From NCBI RefSeq assembly GCF_030013205.1, contig NZ_CP122648.1: DNA of 64,000 bases; one strand, given 5' to 3'. This DNA is from Escherichia coli. GTDB taxonomy: Bacteria; Pseudomonadota; Gammaproteobacteria; Enterobacterales; Enterobacteriaceae. Position numbers: made by a program. Positions 57,001-64,000 of the stretch are shown one piece after another (positions within the stretch are counted from its first letter, which is position 1; each line of letters opens with the position of its first letter).

Positions 57001-60000
57001 TTCCGCCTCGCGATCGACCGTGCATTTACCGTAAAAGGTGCCGGGCTGGTCGTCACCGGTACGGCGTTAAGCGGGGAAGTGAAGGTAGGCGATTCACTCT
57101 GGCTGACTGGTGTAAATAAACCGATGCGCGTGCGTGCGCTGCATGCACAAAACCAGCCAACAGAAACCGCCCATGCCGGGCAGCGTATCGCGCTTAACAT
57201 CGCGGGTGATGCGGAAAAAGAGCAGATTAACCGTGGCGACTGGCTGCTTGCCGATGTGCCGCCAGAGCCGTTCACGCGGGTGATTGTCGAGCTTCAAACC
57301 CATACGCCGCTGACCCAGTGGCAGCCGCTGCATATTCACCACGCCGCCAGCCACGTTACGGGACGCGTTTCGCTGCTGGAAGATAGCCTTGCCGAGCTGG
57401 TGTTCGACACGCCGCTGTGGCTGGCGGATAACGATCGCTTAGTGTTGCGCGATATCTCGGCCCGCAACACGCTGGCGGGGGCGCGTGTGGTAATGCTTAA
57501 CCCGCCGCGTCGCGGTAAGCGTAAGCCGGAATATCTGCAATGGCTGGCGTCTCTTGCACGAGCGCAGAGCGATGCCGATGCGTTATCTGTTCATCTGGAA
57601 CGCGGCGCGGTTAACCTTGCCGATTTCGCCTGGGCACGGCAGCTCAACGGCGAAGGGATGCGCGAACTATTGCAACAGCCTGGCTATATTCAGGCTGGTT
57701 ATAGCTTGTTGAATGCGCCGGTTGCCGCCCGCTGGCAGCGGAAAATTCTCGACACATTAGCGACTTATCATGAGCAACATCGCGATGAACCTGGTCCTGG
57801 GCGCGAACGTCTGCGACGTATGGCGTTGCCAATGGAAGATGAAGCGCTGGTACTGTTGCTGATTGAAAAGATGCGCGAAAGCGGCGACATCCTCAGTCAT
57901 CACGGCTGGCTGCATCTGCCGGATCACAAAGCAGGCTTCAGCGAAGAGCAGCAGGCCATCTGGCAAAAAGCAGAGCCGCTGTTTGGTGACGAACCGTGGT
58001 GGGTGCGAGACCTGGCAAAAGAGACGGGAACCGACGAGCAGGCAATGCGTCTGACGCTACGTCAGGCGGCGCAGCAGGGGATAATTACCGCGATCGTTAA
58101 AGATCGTTATTACCGTAACGATCGGATTGTCGAGTTTGCCAATATGATCCGCGATCTCGATCAGGAATGTGGTTCAACCTGCGCGGCGGATTTCCGCGAT
58201 CGCTTAGGCGTAGGCCGAAAACTGGCAATTCAAATTCTGGAATATTTTGACCGCATTGGTTTTACGCGTCGTCGGGGAAATGATCATTTACTGCGCGACG
58301 CAGGTGATGCTGCCAACTTACTGATTTAGTGTATGATGGTGTTTTTGAGGTGCTCCAGTGGCTTCTGTTTCTATCAGCTGTCCCTCCTGTTCAGCTACTG
58401 ACGGGGTGGTGCGTAACGGCAAAAGCACCGCCGGACATCAGCGCTATCTCTGCTCTCACTGCCGTAAAACATGGCAACTACAGTTCACTTACGCCGCCTC
58501 TCAGCCCGGTACGCACCAGAAAATCATTGATATGGCCATGAATGGCGTCGGATGTCGCGCCAGTGCACGCATTATTGGCGTTGGCCTCAACACGATTTTC
58601 CGCCACTTAAAAAACTCAGGCCGCAGTCGGTAACCTCGCGCATACAACCGGGCAGTGATGTGATTGTCTGCGCTGAAATGGACGAACAGTGGGGCTACGT
58701 CGGTGCTAAATCACGTCAGCGCTGGCTGTTTTACGCGTATGACAGGATGCGGAGGACGGTTGTGGCGCACGTCTTCGGTGAACGCACTCTGGCCACACTG
58801 GAGCGTCTTCTGAGCCTGCTGTCGGCCTTTGAGGTCGTGGTATGGATGACGGATGGCTGGCCGCTGTATGAATCACGCCTGAAGGGAAAGCTGCACGTTA
58901 TCAGCAAGCGTTATACTCAGCGCATTGAGCGGCATAACCTGAATCTGAGACAACATCTGGCAAGGCTGGGACGGAAGTCACTGTCGTTCTCAAAATCGGT
59001 GGAGCTGCATGACAAGGTCATCGGGCATTATCTGAACATAAAACACTATCAGTAAGTTGGAGTCATTACCCAGGACGTAAGGGAAAACGCCTCTGACTGC
59101 ATCATCGAATTTGAGTTTTGCCACCCCTGAAATAACGTTAAGCACATTGCCGATGGGCGGTGTAATTAAGCCGATTGAGCAGTTAATGATAAACATGACA
59201 CCGAAATAAATCGGATCGATTCCTGCCTCTTTAACTAAAGGCATTAATACCGGGGTAAGAATTAATACCGTCGGCGTTAAATCCATGACCATGCCGACAA
59301 TCAGGATAGCCACCATAATGACGATAAACAGCAGACGCGGTGAATCGACCAGCGGTTGCAGTAAATCAGAAACCATCATCGGCAGTTCAGCAATGGTGAT
59401 CAGCCAGGCGGAAACTTGTGCCGAGGCTACCAGAAACATCACCACTGAGGTCGTTTTCGCTGCGCCAATGAGCACATGCCAAAGTGTGGCGAAGGTCATT
59501 TCACGGTAAATAACTGTGGCGACAAACAGCGCATAGAAAGCAGCAACGGCCCCGGCTTCGGTAGGGGTAAACAGACCGGAGCGAAACCCGCCAATAATGA
59601 TGACTGGAAGAAACAGCGCCCAGATACCGGAGACAAAAGAGTGCCAGATTTCCTGCATCGTTGCTTTTTGCTGGCGGGGTAAATTAAGGCGACTGGCCTG
59701 CCACCACCAGGTAAGCATCAGCGTTGCGCCCATCATCATGCCAGGGGCAATGCCCGCCATAAACAGCTTACTGATGGATAATCCGCTGGAAACGCCGAAA
59801 ATAATAAACGGAATGGAAGGGGGAATAATTGGCGCGATAATGCCGCCAGAGGCAATCAGCCCCGCCGCCCGGTTGACCGGGTAGTTGGCGCTGCGCATCA
59901 TCGGCACCAGTAGAGCGGCAACGGCGGCGGTATCCGCAACGGCAGAACCAGAAAGGCTTGCCATAATCATAGCCGCCAGCACGCCGACGTAGCCCAGCCC

Positions 60001-63000: not shown

Positions 63001-64000
63001 GCCGCTCTACTGTTCCGCAATGGGCAAGATCTACATGGCGTTTGGTCACCCGGACTACGTGAAGTCATACTGGGAAAGCCATCAGCATGAGATCCAGCCG
63101 TTAACCCGCAATACCATTACCGAGCTGCCCGCGATGTTCGACGAACTGGCGCACATTCGTGAAAGCGGAGCGGCGATGGACAGAGAAGAAAACGAACTCG
63201 GCGTCTCTTGTATTGCTGTTCCGGTGTTTGATATTCATGGGCGGGTGCCGTACGCCGTGTCGATTTCTCTTTCGACATCACGTCTGAAACAGGTGGGGGA
63301 GAAAAATCTCCTGAAACCACTGCGTGAAACCGCGCAGGCTATTTCTAATGAACTGGGATTTACTGTCAGGGACGACCAGGGCGCGATCACATAACGCTTT
63401 GGACAAGTGCCAAAACTTTAACATTTCCTTCGTTGGATCAAAGCAGTAGAGACGCGCTCTCTGGCACTCTGCTGTTTTAGTGCAAAGGAGTGATCATGAA
63501 CCGGTTTATTATTGCGGATGCGACGAAATGTATCGGTTGCCGTACCTGTGAAGTGGCTTGCGCAGTGTCGCATCAGGAGAATCAGGATTGCGCTGCGTTG
63601 TCACCAGACGAGTTTATTTCCCGTATTCGTGTCATTAAAGACCACACATGGACCACGGCTGTAGCCTGCCATCAGTGTGAAGATGCACCGTGCGCGAATG
63701 TCTGCCCTGTTGACGCGATAAGCCGCGAACATGGGCATATTTTCGTTGAACAATCACGTTGCATTGGCTGTAAAAGCTGTATGCTGGCTTGCCCGTTTGG
63801 TGCGATGGAGGTCGTTTCTTCGCGCAAAAAGGCGAGGGCGATTAAGTGCGATCTGTGCTGGCATCGGGCGACGGGACCGGCCTGTGTTGAAGCCTGCCCG
63901 ACAAAGGCGTTGCAGTGCATGGATGTCGAGAAAGTGCAGCGGAATCGGCTACGGCAGCAGCCTGTTTGAAACGTTTTTCCGGCGTTTCTCAACGCCGGGA

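Follow-up and report, generated by a model that had tools for sequence, protein, structure and literature searches.

An IS1-bounded deletion between selB and yiaN leaves the front half of the yia operon in a porcine Escherichia coli lineage

In a 64,000-nucleotide stretch of Escherichia coli DNA (contig NZ_CP122648.1; the whole stretch is called the window here) the genes yiaJ, yiaK, yiaL and yiaM are present, yiaN runs into a copy of the insertion sequence IS1 and the rest of the yiaK-S operon is missing, which raises the question of how the operon was cut and what its remaining half might still do. The window matches the chromosome of the porcine enterotoxigenic E. coli (ETEC) strain ETEC4079 (NZ_CP122643.1; pig faeces, Belgium) with 100% identity. 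We found that IS1 lies at the junction of a single deletion of 15,936 bp, spanning yiaN codon 401 to selB codon 608, and that IS1 at the same selB position borders deletions of other lengths in close relatives. The arrangement is very probably the scar of an IS1-mediated adjacent deletion, in which the selB end stayed fixed and DNA was removed rightwards from the right end of IS1.

The junction consists of the following features, given in window coordinates.

55091-56482, + strand: selA, from the listing of open reading frames (ORFs); selB is next on the right.
56479-58302, + strand: selB', native codons 1-608 of 614, from alignment to K-12 SelB; the ORF continues to 58329.
58294-58302: the 9 bases left of IS1, CGCGACGCA.
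58303-59070, + strand: complete IS1 of 768 bp, the sole IS1 copy in the window, at the deletion junction.
58303-58325 and 59048-59070: left and right terminal inverted repeats of IS1, 23 nt.
58358-58633 and 58552-59055, + strand: insA and insB' of IS1, both frames open.
59071-59079: the 9 bases right of IS1, CAGGACGTA.
59071-60273, - strand: yiaN', native codons 1-401, large permease of a tripartite ATP-independent periplasmic (TRAP) transporter, from the ORF listing and alignment to K-12.

The IS1 transposase model NF033558 matched both frames of the element. Comparison of the flanks revealed no 9-bp target-site duplication at the window IS1, CGCGACGCA standing on one side and CAGGACGTA on the other; the 6/9 match between these two 9-mers was regarded as coincidental, and the flank in ETEC4068 matches at only 1/9 positions. 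Both window flanks are colinear, in the orientation of K-12 and of the relative EC556, and the missing DNA starts exactly at the IS1 end. Since the flanks keep the K-12 orientation, the event was a single deletion bounded by one IS1 and neither an insertion into yiaN nor an inversion. The sequence-only reading, an earlier account of this DNA, had described the loss of about 24 C-terminal codons of yiaN to IS1; the number is exactly 24, and 59071 is the first base after the element. In treating the event as a yiaN truncation it correctly placed IS1 at yiaN, but the true extent is 15,936 bp and selB is fused to IS1 as well.

The size of the loss was measured against EC556, which is undeleted and has no IS1 in selB. 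In K-12, 11 intact genes lie between yiaN and selB (yiaO, lyxK, sgbH, sgbU, sgbE, yiaT, yiaU, yiaV, yiaW, aldB and yiaY). The EC556 locus reads, from the left, selB (614 amino acids, aa), yiaY, a Fic gene, aldB, a restriction-endonuclease gene, hicA and hicB, followed by a GH127 hydrolase, an MFS transporter, an AraC regulator, sgbE, sgbU, sgbH, lyxK, yiaO, yiaN-M-L-K and yiaJ. Because yiaT-W are not in the EC556 locus, K-12 synteny is only partly the right reference for this lineage: the expectation built on it held for the missing yiaO and lyxK-sgbHUE, but the neighbourhood from which they were lost was a different one. Against the EC556 locus (L008) the left flank of the window ends at 6472 and the right flank starts at 22409, both with 99.9-100% identity. 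The segment lost between them comprises the selB tail, yiaY, the Fic gene, aldB, the restriction-endonuclease gene, hicAB, the GH127, MFS and AraC genes, sgbE, sgbU, sgbH, lyxK, yiaO and the last 24 codons of yiaN.

The selB junction proved to be shared. In the strains whose junctions were examined directly (ETEC4068, ETEC4067, ETEC4070 and W13-16) the left junction selB::IS1 is identical and the element differs from the window copy by 0-1 mismatch, and the right-hand end of the deletion varies as follows, relative to EC556.

ETEC4068: 5,528 bp lost; first retained DNA about 500 bp upstream of hicA.
ETEC4067 and ETEC4070: 10,187 bp lost; first retained DNA upstream of the AraC gene.
This window (ETEC4079): 15,936 bp lost; first retained DNA at yiaN codon 401.
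W13-16: 16,123 bp lost; first retained DNA 187 bp deeper in yiaN.

By coordinates, ETEC4075 has the same arrangement as ETEC4068, and P15-25, ETEC6333, ETEC6334 and ETEC1701 show the same match pattern as W13-16. The close relatives W13-16 and P15-25 are edema-disease strains of serotype O139:H1 and sequence type ST1 (PMC8798679). All right-hand deletion ends fall in AT-rich DNA (GC content 0.30-0.43). An ordering of the deletion states by local single-nucleotide polymorphisms (SNPs) was dropped, the variation being too small (0-1 SNPs in about 4.7 kb of shared flanks). A second lesion accompanies the shorter deletions: lyxK carries a 92-bp deletion, identical in ETEC4068, ETEC4067 and ETEC4070 and annotated as frameshifted by the NCBI annotation pipeline PGAP (positions 11570-12974 of the ETEC4068 locus, L007), and is intact in EC556 and three other relatives. 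ETEC4069, ETEC4071, ETEC1748 and K_EC180 probably group with ETEC4067 and ETEC4070, as indicated by their coordinates and by the lyxK lesion common to them. The lesion is found in both of the states with shorter deletions, so the ancestor of the window strain had probably lost LyxK activity before the larger deletion took place.

IS1 is known for its role in adjacent deletions. Deletions of this kind keep the IS and leave no target duplications (PMC11708052). An adjacent deletion is what the present locus indicates, because one IS end is fixed, a ladder of deletions starts from the other end and a target duplication is absent. One IS1 copy, anchored by its left end at selB codon 608, would have been present in the ancestry of the strain; DNA would then have been removed from exactly the right end of the element, running rightwards over 15,936 bp relative to EC556, and the outcome would be a front half of the operon (yiaJ, the promoter, yiaK, yiaL, yiaM and yiaN') that is itself untouched but has lost its functional partners.

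The same end product, namely one IS1, colinear flanks and an absent target duplication, would also arise by homologous, RecA-dependent recombination between selB::IS1 and a second, directly oriented IS1 at yiaN codon 401, leaving one hybrid IS1. Partners for such an exchange are conceivable: the ETEC4079 genome has about 22 IS1 places, IS1 inserts near the yiaN 3' end elsewhere, as in H1827/12, and an independent junction lies 6 bp away in strain 1506. We nevertheless consider this explanation unlikely. Because the four right ends have a single left junction and a single IS1 sequence in common, IS1 would have had to insert a second time on four separate occasions, always in the same orientation and each time followed by recombination, and the intermediate with two IS1 copies was seen in none of the directly examined loci of the lineage. 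We infer that intramolecular transposition of IS1, rather than recombination between two IS1 copies, made the deletion.

Several points weigh against the adjacent deletion and its consequences as we present them. On sequence alone, a transposition within the molecule and a recombination with a transient second IS1 look alike. With 0-1 local SNPs, sequential deletions are not distinguishable from independent ones. A foreign, diverged (below about 96.7% identity) or partial second copy of the lost genes elsewhere in the genome leaves a small residual doubt, and the loss of function proposed below would follow from gene content. The exact window junction, finally, is seen in one assembly only, that of ETEC4079, and depends on it.

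The missing genes were sought within and beyond the window. The K-12 proteins YiaO, LyxK, SgbH, SgbU and SgbE gave no tblastn match anywhere in the 64 kb, as the sequence-only reading had reported. Matches resembling YiaV and YiaW at 46709-48207 (75-77% protein identity) are the paralogues yibI/yibH (46709-48210) and not relocated genes. The alleles of the lineage itself then served as queries, with ranked lists of top records that show near-full-length copies above about 96.7% (sgbE-yiaO query) or above 96.9% identity (10.3-kb query). The 10.3-kb segment of ETEC4068 was found in 6 genomes at 99.9% identity or more, the next record being at 97.9%; for the 4.8-kb sgbE-yiaO block of EC556 the corresponding figures were 12 genomes and 96.9%, and ETEC4079 was in neither group. 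The sequence-only reading had named intact missing genes elsewhere in the genome, together with a second complete yiaN, as what would refute it; with the lineage allele of sgbE-yiaO in 12 related genomes and not in ETEC4079, the searches did not refute it. In addition, the plasmids in the set of 5,426 complete genomes are all without the sgbE-yiaO block.

These searches bear on the two remaining explanations. That an IS1-mediated rearrangement moved or inverted yiaO-lyxK-sgbHUE together with a complete yiaN to another place is conceivable in so far as IS1-rich genomes do rearrange and only 64 kb had been in view before; it is highly improbable given flanks oriented as in a simple deletion and the search results just described, and inversion or relocation was discarded on flank orientation and the searches with the relatives' own allele. 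Equally improbable is an assembly artefact, in which two IS1 copies flanking the segment collapsed and mimicked a deletion at a junction known from a single assembly, since the ranked-list searches found the lineage allele in no ETEC4079 replicon, and five independently assembled relatives with a deletion 187 bp deeper, besides others with shallower ones, make the phenomenon real in the lineage.

The deletion also altered the left-hand gene. The last 6 residues of SelB, LLFPEK, are replaced by GDAANLLI, read from the left inverted repeat of IS1, as shown by alignment to K-12 SelB. The construct of PDB entry 2PJP covers residues 487-607 of E. coli SelB, and every one of these residues is kept in the window; we take this construct to be the SECIS-RNA-binding WH3/4 module, solved with RNA. 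Since residues 1-608 are kept, covering the whole 2PJP fragment, the window SelB is probably still functional, and we predict that SelB tolerates the exchange of its last six residues.

On the right-hand side, the retained part of the operon consists of the following features in addition to yiaN'.

60276-60749, - strand: yiaM, TRAP small permease, intact, 157 aa, 100% identity to K-12.
60867-61334, - strand: yiaL, YhcH/YjgK/YiaL family, intact, 155 aa, 8 differences from K-12.
61346-62344, - strand: yiaK, 2,3-diketo-L-gulonate reductase (3-dehydro-L-gulonate 2-dehydrogenase), intact, 332 aa, 2 differences from K-12.
62345-62545, no strand: yiaK-yiaJ divergent promoter/operator region, present and the same as in relatives of the lineage.
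62546-63394, + strand: yiaJ (plaR), IclR-family repressor, intact, 282 aa, 1 difference from K-12.

Orthology to the K-12 yiaK-S operon thus covers yiaJ, the promoter region, yiaK, yiaL, yiaM and yiaN residues 1-401, with proteins 95-100% identical. YiaJ, YiaK, YiaL and YiaM are all full length, free of frameshifts and stops in tblastn searches and global alignments with the K-12 MG1655 proteins, which bears out their earlier description as intact; YiaM scored 329.6 bits against model NF007374 (cut-off 260) and YiaK 671 bits against NF009750. The PlaR box and the yiaK promoter are located in the yiaK-yiaJ spacer (PMC6958661), which differs from K-12 at 10 positions (9 substitutions and 1 indel).

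The further claim that these remaining genes are on the way to decay found no support in the comparison with relatives. From 59070 to 64000 the window is 100.000% identical over 4,931 bp to EC556 and to ETEC4068, both of which have the full transporter genes, and the divergence from K-12 is mostly synonymous (codons differing, synonymous/nonsynonymous: yiaJ 9/1, yiaK 30/2, yiaM 6/0, yiaN 20/0, yiaL 13/8). Point-mutational decay of yiaJKLM was rejected on these two grounds. The 8 differences in YiaL were likewise dismissed as a sign of decay, since this allele (WP_063084996.1) is that of the lineage and also occurs in relatives with a complete operon. Erosion is visible at the level of the locus only, in the sister strains where a further IS1 deletion has taken 187 bp more of yiaN. 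YiaJ/PlaR has 18 binding sites, most of them outside the yia operon and including galacturonate, fructose, sorbitol and fructoselysine genes (PMC6958661). Because most of its targets lie outside, the repressor need not turn dispensable and may remain under selection irrespective of the operon.

What was lost from yiaN is a structural element of the transporter. The chimeric ORF (58990-60273) stops at 58990 within IS1 and encodes 427 aa, of which residues 1-401 equal those of K-12, and 26 residues encoded by IS1 stand in place of the final 24 native ones, VLYSLLVVFVFIPDLIILPLKWIN. Native residues 402-425 align with the C-terminal helix of Photobacterium SiaM (PpSiaM, PDB 7QHA_B), and the hydropathy of the best 19-residue window in the tail falls from 2.73 in the native protein to 1.23 in the IS1-coded substitute. 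The truncated YiaN lacks the final transmembrane helix and falls short of the 12 helices of a complete large permease. In TRAP systems uptake is strictly dependent on the binding protein, and half of the transport domain, the part that moves, is made up of transmembrane helices 10-12 of the M subunit (PMC9971032). Of the three YiaMNO components the small permease YiaM is present, the binding protein YiaO absent and the large permease YiaN incomplete; the TRAP transporter is therefore broken, as previously proposed, because YiaO is gone and YiaN is without its last helix.

Counted over the whole yiaK-S operon, five of the nine genes are absent (yiaO, lyxK, sgbH, sgbU and sgbE) and a sixth, yiaN, is truncated. 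Since the catabolic half, lyxK-sgbHUE, is missing, the pathway cannot run from the yia locus, and this part of the earlier claim of a non-functional pathway stands, whereas the loss of the phenotype itself is a prediction. Judged by its gene content, from which the kinase, the decarboxylase and the epimerases have gone along with the binding protein, the remnant would be unable to import or catabolise 2,3-diketo-L-gulonate or L-xylulose, and YiaK alone would yield 3-keto-L-gulonate with no kinase to use it. On the basis of the literature in PMC6958661, the expected phenotype would be the loss of the yia share of aerobic L-ascorbate use and of the ability to mutate to L-lyxose utilisation.

In the annotation, RefSeq lists both IS1-fusion ORFs as intact, selB with 616 aa and yiaN with 427 aa, and the chimeric YiaN scores 883 bits against the YiaN model NF011634 (cut-off 800). 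Automated naming hides such truncations, and gene-content tables overstate the abilities of the strain. A flag of the opposite kind was noticed at coaBC (1821-3113, - strand), which RefSeq calls a pseudogene "missing C-terminus" (1832-3040), yet the ORF in the window is complete and overlaps dut as in K-12; this essential gene is likely undamaged and the flag a quirk of the annotation.

Beyond yiaJ the next gene in the window is ysaA, and just past the right end of the window an IS1397 element (IS3 family) lies between ysaA and avtA (NZ_CP122643.1, 160085-161433; L001, 15286-16634). The DNA beyond IS1397 differs in W13-16 and EC556, where livJ stands in place of avtA, which suggests that the far flank of the yia remnant has undergone an additional rearrangement associated with an IS.

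The nested series illustrates one-sided IS1 deletion cleanly in a natural setting, and it might serve to mark sub-lineages of edema-disease E. coli. Because at least four nested deletions arose while the flanks gained 0-1 SNPs, we tentatively raise the possibility that selB::IS1 is an unusually active one-ended deletion generator, whose leftward reach would be limited by selection for selenoprotein synthesis, with the loss of plant-sugar and ascorbate genes favoured or unopposed in the pig. If this were true, the last six residues of SelB would be shown to be dispensable in vivo, the GH127/MFS, sgb, lyxK and yiaNO genes would stand out as plant-sugar and ascorbate genes that are repeatedly lost, and the ladder could be used as a fine-scale lineage marker.

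Seen across the species, the case is one of ordinary IS1-mediated gene loss in a locus that is highly variable in E. coli. Of 5,426 complete E. coli genomes, 5,424 have at least a partial match to yiaJ-yiaM, and 4,863 have a match to yiaO-sgbE, which about 10% lack. In the O157:H7 records that were sampled, 141 bp at the yiaJ end is all that is left, and a further class of genomes has yiaJKL only, without K-12-like yiaMN. Independent IS1-bounded deletions ending in or beside yiaN occur in several strains, among them Z503 from an unrelated lineage. Those from selB to yiaN were found in TOK-001, in 730V1 and in the group of 1506, HCP8S3_I1 and MSB1_1D, where IS1 lies beyond the selB junction of the window by 65 bp, by 128 bp and, within the start of yiaY, by about 270 bp, respectively; the junction common to the last group is 6 bp from the yiaN junction of the window. 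In all of these IS1 is downstream of an intact selB, in contrast to the window, where it lies within the last six selB codons; its position in the three independent lineages fits selection guarding selAB on the left side. H1827/12 has a simple IS1 insertion near the yiaN 3' end, with a 9-bp duplication, ATATTTTCC. About 31 genomes, counted here as roughly 18 events, carry IS1 in the searched orientation no more than about 800 bp from the yiaN 3' end; as this is only about twice the naive estimate of about 15 genome-level occurrences from IS1 copy number, a strong IS1 hot spot at this place is not claimed. The four-step nested ladder in a near-clonal pathogen lineage is the only mildly notable feature.

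Compared with the K-12 yiaK-S operon, which encodes the YiaMNO TRAP transporter for 2,3-diketo-L-gulonate under the YiaJ/PlaR repressor, the lineage ancestrally had hicAB and the GH127, MFS and AraC genes downstream. The gal region of E. coli K-12 is the classical setting for adjacent deletions by IS1. The present series resembles them in that the IS is kept, the deletion starts from the exact IS end and a target-site duplication is absent, and also in the nested lengths from one fixed junction with end points in AT-rich DNA. It differs from the classical case in being a natural population series in a pig-pathogen clone instead of a product of laboratory selection, and in that its fixed end lies within the last six codons of selB, an important gene that is not obviously destroyed by this.

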